Assembly: GCF_053078305.1 (NCBI RefSeq) | Contig: NZ_CP166879.1 | Reading direction: 5' to 3' (one strand) | Length of the DNA stretch: 64,000 bases | In this document: in pieces, positions 19,604 to 57,935 of the stretch | Layout of the letters: every line of letters starts with the position of its first letter | Numbering within the stretch: position 1 is the first letter of the stretch | Translations under genes and position numbers: made by a program | The notes under the pieces: model-generated | Told to the model about the DNA's origin: nothing | Database searches by the model: none | Seen by the model: only the letters and a program-made list of their open reading frames with translations

Positions 19604-20779
19604 ATGCGTCTGTTTTCTGTTCCCCCACCCACGCTACTGGCGGGGTTTCTGGCGGTATTAATTGGCTACGCCAGTTCAGCGGCAATAATCTGGCAAGCAG
19701 CGATTGTCGCCGGAGCCACCACTGCACAAATCTCTGGCTGGATGACGGCGCTGGGGCTGGCAATGGGCGTCAGTACGCTGACTCTGACATTATGGTATCG
19801 CGTACCTGTTCTCACCGCATGGTCAACGCCTGGCGCGGCTTTGTTGGTCACCGGATTGCAGGGACTAACACTTAACGAAGCCATCGGCGTTTTTATTGTC
19901 ACCAACGCGTTAATAGTCCTCTGCGGCATAACGGGACTCTTTGCTCGTCTGATGCGCATTATTCCGCACTCGCTTGCGGCGGCAATGCTTGCCGGGATTT
20001 TATTACGCTTTGGTTTACAGGCGTTTGCCAGTCTGGACGGTCAATTTACGTTGTGTGGAAGTATGTTGCTGGTATGGCTGGCAACCAAGGCCGTTGCGCC
20101 GCGCTATGCGGTAATTGCCGCGATGATTATTGGGATCGTGATCGTTATCGCGCAAGGTGACGTTGTCACAACTGATGTTGTCTTTAAACCCGTTCTCCCC
20201 ACTTATATTACCCCTGATTTTTCGTTTGCTCACAGCCTGAGCGTTGCACTCCCCCTTTTTCTGGTGACGATGGCATCGCAAAACGCACCGGGTATCGCAG
20301 CAATGAAAGCAGCCGGGTATTCGGCTCCTGTTTCGCCATTAATTGTATTTACTGGATTGCTGGCACTGGTTTTTTCCCCTTTCGGCGTTTATTCCGTCGG
20401 TATTGCGGCAATCACCGCGGCTATTTGCCAAAGCCCGGAAGCGCATCCGGATAAAGATCAACGTTGGCTGGCAGCTGCCGTTGCAGGCATTTTTTATTTG
20501 ATCGCAGGTCTGTTTGGTAGTGCTATTACCGGGATGATGGCTGCCCTGCCCGTAAGTTGGATCCAGATGCTGGCAGGTCTGGCGCTGTTAAGTACCATTA
20601 GCGGCAGTTTGTATCAGGCGCTGCATAATGAGCGTGAGCGAGACGCGGCGGTGGTGGCATTTCTGGTAACGGCAAGTGGATTGACGCTGGTCGGGATTGG
20701 TTCTGCGTTCTGGGGATTAATTGCCGGAGGCGTTTGTTACGTGGTGTTGAATTTAATCGCTGACAGAAACCGATATTGA
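19604..20779 (+). CDS. ydcO: BenE-family inner-membrane transporter
   Basis: ORF 19481..20779; start set at ATG 19604 (MRLFSVPPPTLLAGF) preceded by gaggtg SD; 391 aa, polytopic. Confidence 0.85.
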   Translation: MRLFSVPPPTLLAGFLAVLIGYASSAAIIWQAAIVAGATTAQISGWMTALGLAMGVSTLTLTLWYRVPVLTAWSTPGAALLVTGLQGLTLNEAIGVFIVTNALIVLCGITGLFARLMRIIPHSLAAAMLAGILLRFGLQAFASLDGQFTLCGSMLLVWLATKAVAPRYAVIAAMIIGIVIVIAQGDVVTTDVVFKPVLPTYITPDFSFAHSLSVALPLFLVTMASQNAPGIAAMKAAGYSAPVSPLIVFTGLLALVFSPFGVYSVGIAAITAAICQSPEAHPDKDQRWLAAAVAGIFYLIAGLFGSAITGMMAALPVSWIQMLAGLALLSTISGSLYQALHNERERDAAVVAFLVTASGLTLVGIGSAFWGLIAGGVCYVVLNLIADRNRY

Positions 20780-22525
20780 CATCCTCCACGCCCTGAAGGA
20801 CGTGGATCCCTGCTACGTTCAGGCTGTCGCCTGAATCATTTCGGTGGGTTCCTGCTTCAACGGGCGGCCTGACTGCACCATCTCTCCACAGGCAAGAACG
20901 GCGTGCCCCGCCGCTAAAATGTTACGAGCGCCATTTACATCGGCGTTCGCTGTATATCCACATACCTGGCATCTGAATTTACTTTGTGACAGGCGGTTCT
21001 CTTTCGCTGTATGACCACAGTACGCGCAACGCTGGCTTGTATACGCTGGCGGAACAGCAAGCACCTGACCGCCACGCCAGAGCTGCTTGTACTCAAGCTG
21101 GCGGCGCATTTCATACCAGCCCTGATCCAGTATCGAACGGTTTAAACCTGATTTTGCCCGGACATTGCGCCCCGGCTGGCTGACCGTACCCGCTGCTGAC
21201 TTTGACATGTTGCTGACCTTCAAATCCTCAATGACTATCATTGCGTGGTTTTTGCTGACGGCCGTTGTGACTTTGTGAAGGTAGTCCCTGCGGATATTTG
21301 CGATACAGGAATGCAGTCGCTGTATTTTGCGTTTCTGCTTCTGCCAGTTGTTGCTGAATTTGACCTTGCGGCTTAACTGTCGCTGAAGTCTCGCCAGCGT
21401 CTTCTGGTTTTTCTGAAAACTGTTTACAGGCTCAAAGACTGTGCCATCTGACAGCGTGGCGAGTTTAGCCACGCCAGCATCCAGCCCGACCATTGATGCT
21501 GAAGGGTGAGCCGGAGTGGATACTTCACTTTCTGTCTGAATACTGATGTACCACTTACCGCAGGACTGGCTGACAGTGACATTTTTCACAACACCCGTGA
21601 CCTGACGGCTATTCCGGTAGCGCATCCAGCCCAGTTTCGGCAGAAAAATACGGCTGTTTTCCTGATCGAGCTTAACGCCCTGCGGGTAGCGGAATGCATC
21701 ATTCTGTCCCCGCTTTTTGAATCGGGGAAAAGCAGCCCGCTTCCGGAAGAAGTTTTTGTAAGCCCGCTCAAGGTCTTTCAGTGACTGTTGCAATGGCTGT
21801 GAGGGAGAATCTTTAAGCCATTGCGTTTCAGTGGCATTTTTCCACTCAACCAGCCAGGAAGCCATTTTCCCGTAAGGGATGTATTTATTACCGGCCTCAT
21901 GATTCTCATTCTGACGTGCCAGAGCACGATTGAAAACGAAACGACATGCGCCTGCGAAGCGCCTCATTTCACACTCCTGTTGACCACCTGGTCTTAACTG
22001 GAATTTAAATGCCTGTAATCGTTTCACAGGTCAAATGATACTTTGGTCTGTGAAAAAAGAAACCGATATCCGGCGTGGAAGGCATTGTGTTTTCCTGATG
22101 CATGTTCACCTGGTCTTTGTCACCAGATACCGACGCCAGATTTTTGACCATGACGCGACAGAAAAACTACGCACTTACTTTTCAAATGTATGTGCTTATT
22201 TTGAAGCTGAACTGGTTGAAATGGATGGCGAACCAGATCACGTCCATTTGTTAATTAACTAACCTCCCAAACTGGCGATATCCAGTCTGGTAAACAGCCT
22301 CAAAGGCGTATCGGGTAGGTTACTGCGACGAGATCGACCAGATATTGCAGTCAGGTATTACTACAAAGGCGTTTTGTGGAGTCCTGGCTATTTTGCCAGT
22401 AGCTGCGGAGGTGCGCCAATATCCGCCATCCGTCAATACATTGAACAACAGCAAACACCTGGTCAGGTGGAAAACCGCGCCTTATATCCCCGCCCTGAAG
22501 GATGGGGTTTTACGGCGCACCGGAT
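20780..22525 (-). mobile_element. IS200/IS605-family insertion sequence (IS609-like), tnpA and tnpB divergent
   Basis: Divergent tnpB (20819..22027) and tnpA (22035..); subterminal imperfect hairpins sharing loop ccctgaagga near both ends (20785..20806 and about 22485..22505); no terminal inverted repeats, as expected for this family; boundaries approximate. Confidence 0.75.
20819..22027 (-). CDS. tnpB: TnpB (IS605 OrfB-family RNA-guided nuclease, OMEGA effector)
   Basis: 402-aa ORF; Ruv[17 protein letters not shown], Ruv[11 protein letters not shown], zinc finger CAYCGH...CQVCGY, Ruv[14 protein letters not shown] all present; N-terminus [13 protein letters not shown] typical of TnpB. Confidence 0.9.
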
Positions 22526-22541
22526 AAAAAGCGCCATCTAA
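22035..22541 (+). pseudogene. tnpA: IS200-type Y1 (HUH) transposase TnpA interrupted by in-frame TAA
   Basis: N-terminal 75 aa ends ...EPDHVHLLIN then TAA at 22260..22262; the same frame continues PPKLAISSLVNSLKGVSGRLLRR...SPGYFASSCGGAPISAIRQYIEQQQ, matching the TnpA C-terminal half; 3' boundary uncertain. Confidence 0.75.
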
Positions 22542-22550
22542 CGATGGCGC
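22526..22550 (-). terminator. Intrinsic terminator of ydcL
   Basis: gcgccatc-gtta-gatggcgc hairpin followed by T5 on minus strand, 9 bp after ydcL stop. Confidence 0.6.
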
Positions 22551-22558
22551 GTCTGGAA

Positions 22559-23227
22559 CTACTTTTTGTTAACGTCAAACATGGTGGCATCGGTCGCCAT
22601 GTCATCAATAACTTGTTTAATATTTTCGAAAGCCATTGGCGTACTTTCGTTATTCAGGTCTTTACCTTCGCCCTGACGAACGACTTTGATAACCGGTTTA
22701 TTAGTCGCTGCATCAATCAGCTCACCTTCAAAATAGAGGCGAGTATCCATGGTACGGTGGCCTGTAGCCATTTGCGTCCCCGCAACCACTAATGCAACAG
22801 GAACCACTTCATAGAATTGCAGCCCTTCTTTGCTGGTATCTACACCGGTAATGGCCCCACGGAAAATCAGACTACGCGGCCCAGCGGTGGTAACCACTGG
22901 TTTACGCTGCGCTATCGCTTCTTTCATTTCGGTGTTGGTATAGTTCAAAATTTTATCCAGAACTTTCTGCCCTACCTGGGTAGAAGGTTTTGGTACCGGA
23001 TAATAAGTGATTGGGTTCCAGACGATGCTGTCATATTTGCTTTGATCAAAACTCGGGTCTACCCAACGTAAAACAGGTTTACCTGTTGCTGAGGTTGTTT
23101 CTTTTAAATCAGAGTAATTGTTTAAAAAACCAGAATATTTATCTGGCTGGGTGATTTTAGAGGCACAACCAGACAGAGCCAACAAGCCGCATAAAGCTGC
23201 AACTTTCGCAAATGATGTGGTACGCAT
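22559..23227 (-). CDS. ydcL: Lipoprotein YdcL
   Basis: 222-aa ORF; lipobox LALSGC after signal peptide. Confidence 0.88.
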   Translation of the reverse strand: MRTTSFAKVAALCGLLALSGCASKITQPDKYSGFLNNYSDLKETTSATGKPVLRWVDPSFDQSKYDSIVWNPITYYPVPKPSTQVGQKVLDKILNYTNTEMKEAIAQRKPVVTTAGPRSLIFRGAITGVDTSKEGLQFYEVVPVALVVAGTQMATGHRTMDTRLYFEGELIDAATNKPVIKVVRQGEGKDLNNESTPMAFENIKQVIDDMATDATMFDVNKK

Positions 23228-33216: not shown

Positions 33217-33497
33217 TACCGTTGTCTCTCGTCCAGGTTTACTCCTGATAGAAAGTCATCGGCATTTGACGGTAATTACTTACGACTAAAAGCCTCTTTG
33301 CGTCACATTTTTACAACAATTATTGCAGAGAAGATTAATGCTATTGGAATGAAGAGAGTAACGAATGGCTAAACCGAATGACGAAAAATTCTGGAAAACA
33401 GCACGCAATTTCGTGAAGTGATTATTTCGTCCCTAAGGAAACCTCATAGGATGCCTGCGGGTGCCTGAGACTTTCTGTTTTCAGGCTAACCGGGAAT

Positions 33498-33546
33498 CAG
33501 AAAGACGAAGGCCCCGACCGATATTTCTATCAACCGAGGCCAACGA

Positions 33547-33558
<12 letters not shown>
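33498..33558 (-). ncRNA. sokB: SokB antisense RNA (type I antitoxin), approximate
   Basis: Minus-strand promoter: -35 TTGCCG, 17-bp spacer, -10 TAAGAT (plus coords 33588..33593 and 33565..33570); transcript would be antisense to mokB start and end at a hairpin followed by U-rich UUCGUCUUUCUG; ends not mapped. Confidence 0.5.
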
Positions 33559-33754
<196 letters not shown>

Positions 33755-33999: not shown

Positions 34000-34193
34000 A
34001 TAACCTCCATGGTTTATCGAATCTTATGTTCGATTTGAACGTTATACGCTGGTTTATTTTGATACCGTTGATGAGATCAAAGATCGGGTGAATTGATTAA
34101 AAATAAGCCAGATGGACGTATGGGCAAGGATTATGGTTTTATTTGTCATACAAATAAATATAATAGGCGCTTCCGATGTAGACCCGTATTCTT

Positions 34194-34234
34194 CGCCTGT
34201 ACCACGGGTCGGTTTTAGTACAGGCGTTTTCTTT
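34194..34234 (+). terminator. Hairpin plus T-tract in ydcA-cybB intergenic region (terminator-like, plus-strand polarity)
   Basis: 9-bp stem cgcctgtac/gtacaggcg with 15-nt loop followed by ttttcttt on plus strand; alternative stem gacccgt/acgggtc. Confidence 0.35.
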
Positions 34235-51672: not shown

Positions 51673-54600
51673 TTAGAACGTTTTCTTAAAGTTCAGCATC
51701 ACGCCTTTGTCGCTGATGCCGTCCTCTTTCCAGTGATACGCATCCAGATTCAGCGAACTTTCTTTGCTACTGTACTTCACGCCGACGCTCGCCAGGCTGT
51801 TGATACCGCCGCCCTTCTGACCGTCATCGACGTTAAAGTGCTGGCTGCCTGCCCCTGCAAGGCTTGCCGTGCGCTGGCTCTTGCTGTAGCTCAGGTTCGG
51901 CCCGCCTTCCAGCGTCGCATTCGCGCTCCAGCCGCCTTTCCCTGCGTAGTCCAGTTTCAGCCCGACGATGCTGTCCACCGCCGTTTCGCTGCCGCTGTTC
52001 ATGCTCAGGTTAAAGTCTCCGGCATTGCGCTCCTGATAGCCGCCTTCCAGCGTGTGACGCAGTTTCACTCCGGCGTACGGGGTGATTTTCAGCCCTTCGC
52101 GCGGTTCAAAGGTTTTTGCCCCTTCGCTGCGGAACTCCAGGTACTGCTGTTTCACATCCGTGTCTGCCGTTTTGCTGACGTCGCCGTAAGCCACCGAGCG
52201 GCTGCTGTCGAGGTTATGCACGTCATAGCGCAGGGCGTTGTTCCAGTTCATCCCGTTGTCGAAGAACATCTGGTGCTTCAGGCCGAAGAACTGGCTGTAA
52301 CCACCGGTTACGCCGTTGTCGCCCGCTTTCTGCGCACCGTCGCCATCCAGACGGGCGATACCGTACTCCAGACTCAGGCTCTGGCTTTCGCTCAGGTCAA
52401 CGGTTTTACGCAACGCCAGCATGTCGTACTCGGTGTTATTTCCGAGTTCAGCACGCGGGTCGCCTTTCGCCACCACGTTAAACGCCAGACCGTTGCCCAT
52501 CTTCGGCGCGGCGTCCGCCAGCATGCTGAAGCGGTTGCTCAGCACGCGCGCCTCGCGGAATACCGTGGTTGCCTGGCTGCCGCTCACCTGCTTCAGGGCG
52601 CTGTTCAGTTCGGCAGTAGTGCCGACGTTCAGGCTGGTATACAGCTCGTTGTTGGTGTAACCCGCATCCAGTGCCTTCGCCACATCGTTCACCGAAGCAT
52701 CGGTCGCCACATCGGTGTAGGCGTTTTTGCTCATGGTGACGTCAACGTTGCCGCTGGCATCGGTGCTGCCTTTGGCGGTCCACACCACAGACGTTGAGGT
52801 GATGGCATCGGCGTCGGTCAGGTTGCTGCCTTCCACCACGTTGTCGAAACTGACCGTGGTGTCTGCCGTACCGGCGGCGAAACCGGTGTTGATCCCGACA
52901 CCGTTCATGCTGGCGTTGTTGACCTTGAGCTTACCGGCGCTGCCGTCAACGTTGGTACCGACCACATAACCGTTGAGGTTGTTGCTACCGCTGCCAGTCG
53001 CATCTCCCCCTGTTGTTACGCCACCAGAACTGGTGTTCGGCACTTCCGGCAACGTGTAGTCGGTGTAATGCACTTCGGTATTATTACCGTTGTTGCCGTT
53101 CACCCCTTCCACGTTCACGCTGTCGCCCTGCTTAATCAACCCGGAACCGGTCACGCCATCGGCAATCACCACGGTACCGTTGTTAACGATATGGCCTTGT
53201 GTTCCCAACACACTGAATGCAAAGGAATCGTTAGCATAGATATTAATCGTGCCGTTGTTCTCGATCACCGCGTCTGCGGTAGCGTTGGCATCCAGTTGCA
53301 TACCAATTAACCCGGTATCGGTGGTACCTTCGGTGCCGAGATTGATAACGCCGTTGTTAACCAGTTGTGCGTTTTTATCACCTTCCATCGCCACGGCATT
53401 GTTGCCGCTGATGTTCATCACGCCATCGTTGAGGGCAACATAGTTGTTGTGGGTGAATTTAACTGCGCTGGCGTTGTCTTTATCGAAGTTAATCACCCCG
53501 CCATCCTGGTTCCACAGGAAGGCATCGCTTTCTGTCGCACCAGCGGTACTTACCGCCACAGTGACTTTCGCATCCACCACGCCCTTGTTAATAAACTGGC
53601 TGGCGCCGTCGTCATAGTGAATAGCGCCCGCGCCAAGTGCGGCATCCAGCGTCATTTCACCGGTGTTATATAACGTGGCGTTAGCATTGCTTCCCTGGAA
53701 GCGAATGGCGTTTTTACTGTTATCAAGGATGAGCTTGCCGCTGTTGTTGAACGTTGATTGGTCGTCAATATCCAGCGTCCCGGCATTGTTATTTTCATCC
53801 TGATAACCCATTTTCCAGGTCCCCGCGTTATTCACCACCGCAGAGTTATAGAGAATGGCACCTTTACGCGCCTCGCCGCCTGCAAGGTTATTGAATACCG
53901 CATCGCCCTGAGCGTTAACGCGCGCCGACGCAATACCGCTGTTATTCACCGTACCATCGTGAAGTTGTAAAGTTGACAGGGAACCGGTGTTATTAATTAC
54001 CGCGTTGCTGTTTTTCTCAATTTTTACGACGTCATTAAGCGTTCCGTTGTTATTGAAGGTTCCTCCTTCCAGAGTCACCGTGTTCAATACACCTTCATTG
54101 GTTAACGCACCGCCTTCATTCACGACGATGGCTGAGCTAATGGTTCCGCTCGACTCGTTAACCAGCGCACCATTTTCGAGTATCCTGATCGTTCCATTTT
54201 TAACAGCACCCGCACTGGTGACATCCCCGTTGATAATCGCACCTGACGATAATAATACGGTCTCACCCGCAGAACTTAATACATCGCCATCATCATATAA
54301 ATCGGCAATATAATTATCCGTTGGATTATATTCATCGGCCCCCTGGCAAACGCCAAAGGTACAAATTGTGCCATAGTTGATAATAAGCCCAGTGCCATCG
54401 TTATAGAATGCCTGACCATTTTCCGCGTTAATGTTGATTACGCCTGTCTGGTCATTAATGGCGGTGCCTTCGTGATAAACCGCCATGCCGACGAGTTTAT
54501 TCACACCGAGAGAATCGTTGTAATTTTCATTTTTCTCCAGGTTGATGGTTCCCTGGTTAATGACCGTGTTGGTATTACCATACGCCGCCATCCCCGCACC

Positions 54601-57528
54601 CGCGTTGTAGACGGTAATCACACCATTCTCGTGGTTGGTAGACGTCGCTTTGGTTAATGCTCCATAGTAAGCATCGGTTCCCGAAGCCATTCCCACACCG
54701 AAATCTTTCGCCGTGCTATTTGCGATGTTATTACGCAGCGATGTTTCATCATTTTCATCGACCCACAGCGTATCCAGGGTGATTTGCCCTTCGTTATCCG
54801 CGGTTGATTTATCGATAGCCAACATCCCCACGCTGCCACGACCATACATCTCAATAATGCCCGTTTCGCCGTTCAGAATGGATGACGAGTAGCTGGCAAG
54901 CATACCTGTCAAACCTAATGCTCTGTTATTGAAAGAGGTACCGTCAGACAAGTTCCACTCTGCCGGATAATTCAGCACGCTGTGCTGATTCATCATTTTG
55001 GTGGTCAAGGTGCCATTGTTAACGCCAATCCCCCCGTATTCAACATCGAAGACTTTTGGTGCCGGGTCGGTACCAAAATCGTACATCGCCAGGCCAATGG
55101 ATCCGTTATTGATGACCGTTGAATCTTTATTCCAGGCAGCCGCAAAACCGATATTTTTCAGTTCAACTTCACCGTTATTGGTCGCCTTCGCACCAGAATC
55201 AATACTAATGGTGGATAACGCTACACGATAATAATAAGTGAAAGAATCCACATCACTCATATCAAACGTTGCGTCAGCGCCAATCTCCAGCTCCGCGCCA
55301 TGGCTCAACTGAATGAGATTTTCGAACCCCAGCGGGAACTCGCCGCTGATGGTTGACTCACCATTCAGGTAGACCGAGGAATGCCCATCAACGTTAATAA
55401 GCGGTGTGTCTCCGATACCACGACGAGATGCGGCAGGTTTTGAGCCATCATCCATGACATTTTTTTCACCGACAAAATGAACACCGCCATTAAGCGTAAA
55501 GGTATTGTCATCGCCAGCAATAACAATACCCGCAATGTGTTCCTGAGCACCGTCGTAACTCGCATAGGAACGCGACGTGGTTTCACTATCAGCAACAACG
55601 GTTAACTGACCATCCAGCGTGACGTCGTTGTTGTCACCGCTGATATTTACCCCGGTTGAGGGATTAAAGAAGTAAGGCTGCGCATTATCGGCTTTCTGAT
55701 CTTTATCAACCAGAATACTGCCCGCTATTTCGATAGTATTACCATCACCCGAAACATTAACACCTGTCGCTTCTTGCCCTGTCACATTCAGCCCATAAGT
55801 CGACAGCGTCATGTTGTTATTATCGCCAGAGACATCAAGACCGGTGGAGAAATCCCCAACGTCTAACCCGCCCGCAAGTGAAATATTGGCTTTATCCCCT
55901 GCAACGCTGACACCGGTTCCGGCGTTGGTCGCGGTAATATCACCGACGTTAACAAATGTCGCATTATTACCGTCGATCTGAATGCCGATTGCATTTTCAC
56001 CTGTAGCGGCCTGGCCAACATTGAGGTCGCCCATGTTGATCACGCTGACGCCATCACCATCAAGCAGCATGCCAATAGAGTTATCTTCGATGACCGTAAT
56101 ATTACCTTTGTTGCTAACGAACGTATCATTGCCGTCAACGTCAATACCGTGCGCACCACCGCTTACGTATAAGTCGCCTTCCTGTTTGATGGTGGCACCG
56201 TCACCGACAATTTTCGAGCCAGTGGAATTCTCACCGTCAACGCTCATGGTACCTTGATTATCGACCCGCGCATTATCGCCATTGATAAGGCTACCCGTAC
56301 CACCATTGGTGATGGTCGAGTCGCCCGCAGTGTTCAGCGTAGCATTATCGCCATTGATGATTACTGCGGTACCGCCGTCAACTTCCGTCTCGCCGTTGTT
56401 ATTGATAGTGATATCGTCACCAGTAAGGATACCAACGACCGAACCCTCGCCGATGGCGGTCGTTTTACCGTCGTTGTTGAGGGTGATGTTGTCACCCTCA
56501 ACCGTCATGACAGTACCGCCATTCAGCGCCGTATTGCCGCCCTGATCGGTGATGATCGCATTACCAAAATCAATCGCAGTTCCGGTTGTGCCATCAACAA
56601 CGACACCGGCCTCTTTAGTGATATGGATGAGCCCATCATCGTCGTAGCTCCAGGTGATGCCACCTGCCGTATTTACGCCATCAAAGATGACGGTGTTGCT
56701 GTCGTCATGGACTGTCCAGCCCTTGACTATCGTCGTCAGGCCATCAGGCGCGGTTAAGGTGTAACTCCCATCGGCATTTTGGCTGTAGGTAAAGGTGGTT
56801 TCGCGAATTTTGACGGTTTTCGCGTCCTGATCCCAGGTTACGTCATTTTTATAGACGACAGGATCGTGTTTAACCGGGGTATCGCCACCATCGTCTGGCG
56901 GAACAGGCGTATCACCGCCGTCGTCTGGAACTGGCGTATCACCGCCATCATCTGGTGGAACCGGCGTATCACCGCCGTCATCTGGTGGAACCGGCGTATC
57001 ACCGCCGTCATCTGGCGGAACTGGCGTATCACCGCCGTCATCTGGCGGAACTGGCGTATCACCGCCGTCATCTGGCGGAACCGGCGTATCATCGCCGTCA
57101 TCTGGCGGAACTGGCGTATCACCGCCGTCATCTGGCGGAACTGGCGTATCACCGCCGTCATCTGGCGGAACCGGCGTATCACCGCCGTCGTCTGGCGGAA
57201 CAGGCGTATCACCGCCATCATCCGGAACTGGGGAGTTATTATGGTGGTGATTGTCATCGTCACTTAAGGTATATATAGCAATTCCCGTAGCTACTGCAGC
57301 AAGACCTGCAGCTGCCCATGGTAAAACTGCACTATCTTTATTTTCTCTGCACTCCGCGGATAAATTTTCTAGCTGCTCTTTGCTCAGGGAATGAATATTT
57401 GCCGGACATGTTATCTTACTGGACTTACGTGTTTTTTCGGTTGAGTCGGGTATTGAAGTATCCGCAGCCCATGTCTGGCTACTTAACGCCATGGCAACAC
57501 AAACAGACAATAATTTTTTCCTTTGCAT
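51673..57528 (-). CDS. ydbA: Giant AIDA-like autotransporter (type Va) YdbA, intact
   Basis: ORF 51673..57567; start set at ATG 57528 (MQRKKLLSVCVAMALSSQTWA signal peptide, SD aagga 8 nt upstream); Pro/Asp-rich repeats, long Gly/Asn/Thr-rich passenger, C-terminal beta-barrel ending ...LNFKKTF. Confidence 0.88.
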   Translation of the reverse strand: MQRKKLLSVCVAMALSSQTWAADTSIPDSTEKTRKSSKITCPANIHSLSKEQLENLSAECRENKDSAVLPWAAAGLAAVATGIAIYTLSDDDNHHHNNSPVPDDGGDTPVPPDDGGDTPVPPDDGGDTPVPPDDGGDTPVPPDDGDDTPVPPDDGGDTPVPPDDGGDTPVPPDDGGDTPVPPDDGGDTPVPPDDGGDTPVPDDGGDTPVPPDDGGDTPVKHDPVVYKNDVTWDQDAKTVKIRETTFTYSQNADGSYTLTAPDGLTTIVKGWTVHDDSNTVIFDGVNTAGGITWSYDDDGLIHITKEAGVVVDGTTGTAIDFGNAIITDQGGNTALNGGTVMTVEGDNITLNNDGKTTAIGEGSVVGILTGDDITINNNGETEVDGGTAVIINGDNATLNTAGDSTITNGGTGSLINGDNARVDNQGTMSVDGENSTGSKIVGDGATIKQEGDLYVSGGAHGIDVDGNDTFVSNKGNITVIEDNSIGMLLDGDGVSVINMGDLNVGQAATGENAIGIQIDGNNATFVNVGDITATNAGTGVSVAGDKANISLAGGLDVGDFSTGLDVSGDNNNMTLSTYGLNVTGQEATGVNVSGDGNTIEIAGSILVDKDQKADNAQPYFFNPSTGVNISGDNNDVTLDGQLTVVADSETTSRSYASYDGAQEHIAGIVIAGDDNTFTLNGGVHFVGEKNVMDDGSKPAASRRGIGDTPLINVDGHSSVYLNGESTISGEFPLGFENLIQLSHGAELEIGADATFDMSDVDSFTYYYRVALSTISIDSGAKATNNGEVELKNIGFAAAWNKDSTVINNGSIGLAMYDFGTDPAPKVFDVEYGGIGVNNGTLTTKMMNQHSVLNYPAEWNLSDGTSFNNRALGLTGMLASYSSSILNGETGIIEMYGRGSVGMLAIDKSTADNEGQITLDTLWVDENDETSLRNNIANSTAKDFGVGMASGTDAYYGALTKATSTNHENGVITVYNAGAGMAAYGNTNTVINQGTINLEKNENYNDSLGVNKLVGMAVYHEGTAINDQTGVININAENGQAFYNDGTGLIINYGTICTFGVCQGADEYNPTDNYIADLYDDGDVLSSAGETVLLSSGAIINGDVTSAGAVKNGTIRILENGALVNESSGTISSAIVVNEGGALTNEGVLNTVTLEGGTFNNNGTLNDVVKIEKNSNAVINNTGSLSTLQLHDGTVNNSGIASARVNAQGDAVFNNLAGGEARKGAILYNSAVVNNAGTWKMGYQDENNNAGTLDIDDQSTFNNSGKLILDNSKNAIRFQGSNANATLYNTGEMTLDAALGAGAIHYDDGASQFINKGVVDAKVTVAVSTAGATESDAFLWNQDGGVINFDKDNASAVKFTHNNYVALNDGVMNISGNNAVAMEGDKNAQLVNNGVINLGTEGTTDTGLIGMQLDANATADAVIENNGTINIYANDSFAFSVLGTQGHIVNNGTVVIADGVTGSGLIKQGDSVNVEGVNGNNGNNTEVHYTDYTLPEVPNTSSGGVTTGGDATGSGSNNLNGYVVGTNVDGSAGKLKVNNASMNGVGINTGFAAGTADTTVSFDNVVEGSNLTDADAITSTSVVWTAKGSTDASGNVDVTMSKNAYTDVATDASVNDVAKALDAGYTNNELYTSLNVGTTAELNSALKQVSGSQATTVFREARVLSNRFSMLADAAPKMGNGLAFNVVAKGDPRAELGNNTEYDMLALRKTVDLSESQSLSLEYGIARLDGDGAQKAGDNGVTGGYSQFFGLKHQMFFDNGMNWNNALRYDVHNLDSSRSVAYGDVSKTADTDVKQQYLEFRSEGAKTFEPREGLKITPYAGVKLRHTLEGGYQERNAGDFNLSMNSGSETAVDSIVGLKLDYAGKGGWSANATLEGGPNLSYSKSQRTASLAGAGSQHFNVDDGQKGGGINSLASVGVKYSSKESSLNLDAYHWKEDGISDKGVMLNFKKTF
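56877..57228. repeat. 27-bp coding tandem repeat, about 12 copies, encoding P(P)DDGGDTPV
   Basis: Near-identical 27-nt units (ccgccgtcatctggcggaaccggcgtatcac and variants) visible directly; one 24-nt unit and one G-to-D variant; generates artefactual ORFs on the opposite strand and other frames. Confidence 0.9.
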
Positions 57529-57935
57529 ATAAAATTCCTTAGATCTAGACCGTGCGTAACAAGCCATGCAGAATTTGAAGATAAATCGTAGTAAATATTC
57601 ATAGTGAAATAAGCAATAAAGAAATGCTTATATAATTCACAAAATCAATATTAAAATCAGGCAAGTAAAAGCATACAAAAAAACAGTTGATGGAATTATA
57701 TTCCACAAAAAACTCACTTCAATCTAAAAATTAACGACAAAAAACAAAAACACACTAATAATTCATTGACGCTGCATATATATTTTGTGATTACATATAT
57801 ATTGGTAATGATTTGTTATTTAAGGGAAGGATATATAAGGTTTTTGTAGAAATACCCACGGTAATTAAGCATGCTAACGTCAGTTTAAATACTGTAAAAG
57901 ATCATTAATAGATACATTTTGTAGCCAACTATAAT

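Follow-up and report, generated by a model that had tools for sequence, protein, structure and literature searches.

Decay of tnpA and retention of tnpB in an orthologous IS609 element at the ydcO/ydcL site of Escherichia coli

The IS609 element between ydcO and ydcL

In the stretch of DNA analysed here (64,000 nucleotides of contig NZ_CP166879.1, hereafter the window), an insertion sequence lies between ydcO and ydcL, within the E. coli gene order sutR, ydcO, (insQ, tnpA), ydcL, tehB, tehA. Positions 20700-22620 are 99.9% identical to E. coli DSM 103246 and 99.1% identical to K-12. The element is IS609, of the IS200/IS605 family, with tnpA and tnpB in divergent orientation (Table 1). The name IS609, already used in the initial annotation, is borne out by 98% identity over the whole element to the copies of E. 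coli O157:H7, in which tnpA is named 'IS609 family transposase' by RefSeq. Only 7 bp separate the start codon of tnpA from that of tnpB, a spacing also found in relatives from other genera, and the gene for the Y1 (HUH) transposase is present in the window element as a pseudogene only.

Table 1. Features of the IS609 element and of its flanks, in window coordinates.
Feature	Position	Strand	Remarks
Predicted guide segment TATCGGTTTCTGTCAGCGAT	20756..20775	-	Antisense to the last ydcO codons; predicted from family architecture
IS609 element, 1748 bp	20776..22523	- (element top strand = window minus strand)	Delimited by the empty-site allele of WB61 and by IS609 copies at three further loci
Predicted guide-RNA (omega RNA) scaffold and right end	20776..20960	-	Overlaps the 3' end of tnpB
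Right-end hairpin	20786-20805	-	Within 20776..20960; element terminus ...GGATGTCAA
tnpB (insQ), 402 codons	20819..22027	-	GTG start, uninterrupted
tnpA 5' part, codons 1-75 and premature TAA	22035..22262	+	HUH motif H69-V70-H71; Pfam Y1_Tnp profile 1-58
Nonsense codon Y76*, TAT to TAA	22260..22262	+	Altered base 22262; TAT in K-12, O157 and other alleles
tnpA 3' part, codons 77-143	22263..22463	+	Holds catalytic Tyr135; untranslated owing to the stop
Position of the native tnpA stop	22464..22466	+	TAG in intact IS609 TnpA, CAG here (stop loss)
Non-native read-through tail	22467..22541	+	Crosses the left end into the flank
Left end of IS609	22469..22523	-	Subterminal hairpin inside; kept in tnpA-deleted derivatives
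Left-end subterminal hairpin	22488-22507		CCCCGCCC-TGAA-GGATGGGG on the + strand; read from sequence
Target / transposon-adjacent motif TTTAT	22524..22528	-	ATAAA on the + strand; directly 5' of the left end
ydcL intrinsic-terminator hairpin	22531..22550	-	T-tract tail is the TTTAT insertion target

The boundaries of the element are given by comparison of the occupied site with the empty ydcO/ydcL allele of strain WB61, which reveals an exact insert of 1748 bp without a target-site duplication, and cross-species homology ceases exactly at 20776. On the minus strand, the layout reads TTTAT, the left end (CCGGTGCGCC...), tnpB, and the right end (...GGATGTCAA), followed by the flank TATCGGTTTCTGTC.... 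At each of the four E. coli IS609 insertion sites compared, the left end has the TTTAT pentamer on its 5' side. The two ends carry the same type of imperfect hairpin, sharing ...CCC-TGAA-GG..., and the right-end hairpin displays compensatory changes among relatives. We also considered a mutation in the left-end hairpin (T at 22503) as a feature shared across the site, which was dropped because strain 2016C-3878 has a C at this position. A scan of the species-representative genomes with an exact pattern of the right end gave no match. The insertion split the stop codon of ydcO, which now ends in ...NRY* using element bases and formerly ended in ...NR*.

Inactivation of tnpA across E. coli

The translated region 22035-22541 (plus strand) forms one frame, in which the TAA at 22260-22262 is the sole internal stop (...DHVHLLIN*PPKLAISS...). 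Residues 18-75 match positions 1-58 of the Pfam Y1_Tnp profile (E=8e-17), the 63 residues that follow the stop match positions 60-121 (E=2e-16), and the stop itself corresponds to profile position 59. With a Tyr restored at this codon, the protein aligns end to end with the solved IS200/IS605 TnpA structures 2ec2, 2a6m, 2vhg, and 2xm3 (E ~1e-17 to 1e-20), and a Tyr occupies residue 76 in 42/42 uninterrupted homologous tnpA genes from species-representative genomes. The initial proposal of a frame conserved on either side of a single TAA is therefore confirmed, since both halves match the family profile and the alignment to solved structures runs through codon 76 once the Tyr is restored.

The end of the frame had to be revised. 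The intact IS609 TnpA of E. coli O157:H7 (WP_000604943.1) has 143 amino acids and terminates in TAG, and a stop is found after codon 142-143 in 40 of the 42 uninterrupted homologues. In the window, codon 143 is followed by CAG and not by TAG, so that codons 144-168 are read-through, including 18 bases of the flank (22524-22541). Position 22541, initially taken as the end of the gene, is thus not native, the true stop having mutated to CAG.

The premature stop lies between the HUH motif and the catalytic Tyr135, hence the product is unable to transpose and the copy is non-autonomous. From the established mechanism of the family, neither strand cleavage nor strand transfer is possible for the truncated TnpA, and the suggestion that autonomous mobility had been lost holds, as the stop removes Tyr135. 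The gene is already flagged as a pseudogene with an internal stop by RefSeq, both in the matching genome and in K-12. The two are different alleles: K-12 combines TAT at codon 76 with TGA at codon 96, and the window combines TAA at codon 76 with a Leu at codon 96.

The distribution of these alleles was followed in 5,426 complete E. coli genomes, using short allele queries joined to a piece of the left-end/ydcL junction and designed to yield no 28-base seed when the diagnostic base differs. The ydcO/ydcL site is occupied in 3,253 of the 5,426 genomes (60%), and empty in about 2,087 (~38%), O157:H7 among them. An exact 55-mer around the TAA is present in 1,025 of the 5,426 genomes, in 859 of these at ydcO/ydcL. 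Three nonsense alleles account for 3,154 of the occupied sites (97%), namely Y76* (TAA, 859 of 3,253 genomes), L96* (TGA, the K-12 allele, 1,694 of 3,253), and E62* (TAA, 601 of 3,253), each with a share between 18 and 52%, and they are mutually exclusive in every copy that was read. The copies read at ydcO/ydcL were that of the window and 21 from other genomes, which are related to one another, and tnpA is dead in 22/22. Five distinct lesions are found among them: the three nonsense mutations, the loss of 1 bp at 22076, and the loss of 5 bp at 22146-22150, which arose inside the Y76* lineage, upstream of the TAA. We conclude that, within E. coli, tnpA at ydcO/ydcL has been inactivated by no fewer than five separate routes.

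Assembly error, a possibility raised in the initial annotation, is excluded by the identical TAA allele in 859 complete genomes at ydcO/ydcL, and the TAA is a genuine and common allele. A comparison with other strains had also been proposed, with a sense codon at this position as the result that would count against the finding. The sense codon TAT does occur, but the copies that have it bear other stops or frameshifts, and the finding stands. The insertion is old, orthologous across most of the species, and probably vertically inherited, and the view that the element is fixed at this site is supported by its being one orthologous insertion in 3,253 of the 5,426 genomes.

Retention of tnpB and its predicted guide RNA

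The product of tnpB contains the Pfam domains HTH_OrfB_IS605, OrfB_IS605, and Cas12f1-like_TNB (zinc ribbon), and aligns with the TnpB of ISDra2 (8bf8/8exa, E=2.7e-55). The RuvC triad D183/E267/D363 is kept and aligned to the catalytic positions of ISDra2, and the zinc-finger cysteines C334/C337/C353/C356 are present. A scan for sigma-70 promoters revealed no convincing candidate for either of the two genes, tnpB and tnpA.

The 185 nt that run from within the 3' end of tnpB to the right end have a fold z-score of -3.7 relative to shuffled sequence, and in an alignment of 27 sequences compensatory changes are observed at 16 of the 41 predicted pairs. Against Rfam, which lacks a family for such a guide RNA, this region gave sub-threshold matches only (HgcC, E=0.027, and sot0042, E=0.18). 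By analogy with the architecture of the family, it is a predicted guide-RNA scaffold. The end of homology at 20776 is what would be expected if the next ~16-20 nt serve as a site-specific guide. The flank that holds this predicted guide is identical in all copies sampled at ydcO/ydcL, and the motif together with the guide match is present only in the unoccupied ydcO/ydcL allele. The empty alleles show a three-way polymorphism at target position 14.

The 402-codon tnpB is intact in 21 of the 22 copies read, the exception being strain 203740, with a 2-bp deletion in the T5 run of the gene that is either real or a sequencing error. Selection was analysed in the window and 14 other ydcO/ydcL copies, with expectations for tnpB scaled from its own synonymous transition and transversion rates and with Poisson P values. 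In this small sample of related genomes, the segregating changes of tnpB comprise 20 synonymous and 23 non-synonymous ones (pN/pS 0.31-0.33), the latter against 54 expected (P = 1.5e-6), and no stops against 3.7 expected (P = 0.025). For tnpA, 14 non-synonymous changes and 3 stops were observed against 19 and 1.1 expected, in addition to two indels, both frameshifts. When a later sample is included, tnpA, with 26% of the coding length, accounts for five of the six disruptive events (P = 0.006). Thus, tnpB is under purifying selection, though weakly constrained, and tnpA evolves in an approximately neutral way. With an uninterrupted frame, an intact triad and zinc finger, and purifying selection, the nuclease gene is indeed retained, as had been proposed from the reading frames.

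IS609 copies elsewhere carry identical stop codons, namely the TAA at yajI in three strains and the TGA in a copy at yfeD-gltX. Since stops are shared between loci, gene conversion or trans-mobilisation has occurred, and the lesions are not cleanly independent for each locus. In the yajI and hslO/yhgE copies tnpB is intact and tnpA is stopped or internally deleted, and the hslO/yhgE copy has kept its left end. The ytfB/TetR copy of strain FDAARGOS_1288 has a tnpB of 399 codons and a tnpA without an internal stop, affected by stop loss only, and in the E. coli copy at yfeD-gltX both genes are dead. Full deletion of tnpA is represented in E. coli by the derivative of OV24, and at a Citrobacter amalonaticus locus tnpA is likewise deleted, with tnpB and both ends kept. 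A protein-seeded scan of species-representative genomes, which did not return E. coli's own representative, gave 80 loci with an IS609-like tnpB; tnpA is open in 42 of these and absent in at least 15, and the reverse pattern, a stopped tnpB beside an open tnpA, is found at 5 of the 80. Because the yajI, hslO, and ytfB copies share the pattern, we ascribe the persistence of tnpB beyond tnpA to the element itself rather than to the ydcO/ydcL locus. No other, intact IS609 tnpA is found within the 64-kb window, and K-12, for which a single IS609 location was found, apparently has no source of intact TnpA; an intact IS609 TnpA exists elsewhere in E. coli, in O157:H7.

Explanations for tnpB without tnpA, and comparison with known systems

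TnpB is a guide-RNA nuclease (Karvelis et al., PMC8612924), which cuts the vacant donor site with a guide RNA derived from the element end, after which recombination restores the element (Karvelis et al., PMC8612924; Meers et al., 10.1101/2023.03.14.532601). Only ~25% of tnpB genes have a tnpA nearby, and most rely on a transposase in trans (Meers et al., 10.1101/2023.03.14.532601). One paper names IS609 as one of nine TnpBs that were purified and carried into experimental validation (PMC12781874); a literature search on IS609, insQ, and ydcM found no functional study of the ydcO/ydcL locus.

In our view, the window probably holds the decayed tnpA of an old, vertically inherited IS609 copy, with tnpB kept as a selfish retention/homing nuclease. 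IS609 is inserted after TTTAT between ydcO and ydcL, and Y76* halts translation past the HUH motif but short of the helix with Tyr135, rendering the copy non-autonomous, with tnpB, the predicted guide-RNA scaffold, and both ends persisting as tnpA decays. TnpB and its guide RNA (with the flank TATCGGTTTCTGTCAG... as the guide and TTTAT as the motif) may still function as a selfish retention/homing nuclease, judging from the family. Its target would be the unoccupied ydcO/ydcL allele, which could arise by excision through an IS609 TnpA acting in trans, or by recombination. Copies that keep tnpB would in this way persist, and tnpA would be dispensable.

The initial annotation regarded the retained nuclease as the pattern expected if TnpB persists for a function other than transposition. 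Such a role is not established, because retention by cutting of the vacant site already explains the upkeep of tnpB, and no arrangement in the family is commoner than a tnpB that lacks a functional tnpA. In addition, the intact IS609 TnpA found elsewhere in E. coli could act in trans. A role beyond transposition is compatible with the data and not required by them, since the known selfish homing/retention role suffices. It is conceivable, if rather doubtful, that in most E. coli, K-12 among them, selection maintains a lone TnpB with its guide RNA in the absence of a functional transposase, either as a self-protecting 'allele drive' that cuts empty ydcO/ydcL alleles when these appear through rare excision or on incoming DNA, or with a host role. 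If an allele drive does operate, the polymorphism at target position 14 of the empty alleles could represent resistance to cutting.

The data also bear on other explanations. TnpB and its guide RNA could have been domesticated to the benefit of the cell, for instance in regulation of ydcO/ydcL or in defence, in the manner of TldR. A single orthologous insertion persists in 60% of E. coli genomes, purifying selection acts on tnpB as tnpA decays, the predicted guide is antisense to the 3' end of ydcO, and tnpB is co-oriented with ydcL, just past its terminator, all of which would fit a cellular function. We nevertheless consider domestication improbable: neither inactivation of RuvC nor loss of the ends, as in TldR-like proteins, is found for the window TnpB, whose intact triad and zinc finger argue against a nuclease-dead regulator and whose two transposon ends are both intact. 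Moreover, the guide is mere flank, as in any mobile copy, ~2,087 genomes (including O157:H7) do without the element, the copies at yajI, hslO, and ytfB are alike and point away from a locus-specific function, and the yfeD-gltX copy has lost both genes.

We attach a similarly low probability to a pure time lag, in which both genes decay neutrally and tnpB has simply not yet been struck in most lineages. The weak constraint (pN/pS ~0.3), the one sampled copy with a frameshifted tnpB, and the death of both genes at yfeD-gltX are in line with such a lag. However, tnpB is 2.8 times as long as tnpA and yet has 0 stops where 3.7 are expected and 23 non-synonymous changes where 54 are expected, tnpA matching its neutral expectation, and each of the tnpA lesions is of long standing and widespread (18-52% of occupied sites), whereas the sole tnpB lesion seen is a singleton. 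Far less probable still is an assembly error at the TAA, or its readthrough by programmed recoding or suppression so that TnpA continues to be made. Such an explanation is favoured by the single stop in the otherwise open frame of the Y76* allele, but it is contradicted by the identical allele in 859 independent complete genomes at ydcO/ydcL, by the upstream 5-bp frameshift gained by a Y76* sub-lineage, by the other stops and frameshifts of sister alleles, and by the loss of the native tnpA stop codon as well. The Tyr76 of 42/42 homologues and the TAT of sister alleles indicate that there is no conserved recoding site, and recoding or readthrough appears refuted as far as sequence can tell.

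Both the IS609 tnpA pseudogene and the general tendency of tnpB to outlive tnpA are already known, and on its own the broken tnpA is an ordinary pseudogene, already annotated, of a familiar insertion sequence. The allele structure, with three nonsense alleles accounting for 97% of one orthologous insertion and a constrained tnpB, is absent from the literature searched and constitutes a modest addition. E. coli, K-12 included, offers a handy natural system for TnpB function after transposase loss, and since K-12 holds exactly one such copy, simple genetics can test the role of TnpB.

The K-12 copy of IS609 is like that of the window, lying at the same ydcO/ydcL site with its tnpA (insP) annotated as a pseudogene and with insQ (ydcM) as an intact RNA-guided endonuclease; it differs in its inactivating mutation, which is L96* rather than Y76*. 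The O157:H7 copy at the ytfB/TetR site has the same ends, the TTTAT motif, and a TnpB of 402 amino acids, but it retains Tyr76 and the native TAG in an open tnpA, and lies at another site with another guide flank. In the wider family, IS605 and IS608 of Helicobacter pylori and ISDra2 of Deinococcus radiodurans share with IS609 the Y1 HUH transposase, the subterminal hairpins, insertion 3' of a motif of 4-5 nt with no duplication of the target, and TCAA as the terminus of the right end. The insertion motifs are TTAC in IS608 and TTGAT in ISDra2. IS609 is set apart from these elements by its TTTAT motif, the start codons 7 bp apart, an insertion of ~15 amino acids in TnpB, and, in the window, a dead tnpA.

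TldR is a domesticated TnpB that is nuclease-dead, has lost its transposon context, and acts as an RNA-guided regulator. It resembles the window TnpB as a TnpB-family protein kept without a transposase, but in the window the nuclease residues and both ends are intact. A further parallel is with non-autonomous tnpB-only elements of the IS605 family, such as those of Geobacillus stearothermophilus, which have tnpB, a guide RNA, and both ends without a working tnpA (10.1101/2023.03.14.532601), and for which a lifestyle of mobilisation in trans and TnpB-driven retention has been proposed (10.1101/2023.03.14.532601). Unlike these elements, the window copy still holds its tnpA as a recent pseudogene, so that the transition to the tnpB-only state is visible in progress.

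Nonsense codons shared among IS609 copies

Two of the premature stops known in tnpA at the ydcO/ydcL site recur in IS609 copies elsewhere: the Y76* TAA of the window is also present in the copies at the yajI site (loci L017, L100 and L101), and the L96* TGA, the K-12 allele, in the copy between yfeD and gltX (L102), in which tnpB is frameshifted as well. In addition, the yajI copy, when set against that of the window, is a haplotype mosaic. The recurring nonsense codons and this mosaic suggest that the copies have exchanged sequence by gene conversion, or that copies with a dead tnpA have been mobilised in trans.

Insertion point and possible transcription of tnpB

The element is inserted within the ydcO stop codon, so that the end of ydcO is shifted by one residue, to a TGA made up of element bases (20777-20779). 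On the other side, the insertion point coincides exactly with the place where the T-tract of the terminator of ydcL ends (22524-22550). Since tnpB also has the same orientation as ydcL, read-through of this terminator could supply tnpB with transcripts. The tnpB GTG and tnpA ATG starts diverge, with just 7 bp between them (22027-22035), and thus the promoter of each gene must sit within the other gene. No consensus promoter was found for either gene. The 7-bp spacing is conserved in relatives belonging to Serratia, Klebsiella, Morganella and other genera. Further features of the window are listed below.

Other features of the window
Feature	Coordinates	Strand	Remarks
sok antitoxin RNA (hok/sok locus)	33459-33610		Rfam, above gathering score
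RydC small RNA	34170-34233		Rfam, above gathering score
Autotransporter-like ORF	51673-57567	-	1964 aa, uninterrupted
Tandem repeat	56872-57222		30-nt unit repeated about 12 times, each encoding PPDDGGDTPV; close to the N-terminus of the autotransporter-like ORF

Variation in unoccupied alleles

In ydcO/ydcL alleles that lack IS609, position 20762 is G, A or C (loci L004, L109 and L110). This base lies at position 14 of the target predicted for TnpB, and its variants replace an Asp in the tail of ydcO by Asn or His. Every occupied allele read has G. The polymorphism could be due to chance or to resistance to cutting by TnpB. Of approximately 2,087 empty alleles, 1,166 are one or two bases off the queried 54-mer.

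Elements with a single intact gene

Two loci, one at hslO/yhgE in E. coli OV24 (L019) and one in Citrobacter amalonaticus (L021), are deletion derivatives that have lost all or most of tnpA while retaining tnpB together with both the left and the right end, and represent a fully tnpB-only stage of IS609. The opposite pattern is observed in IS609-like loci of other species (L030, L032, L034, L037 and L076), where tnpB carries an internal stop and the adjoining tnpA is uninterrupted.
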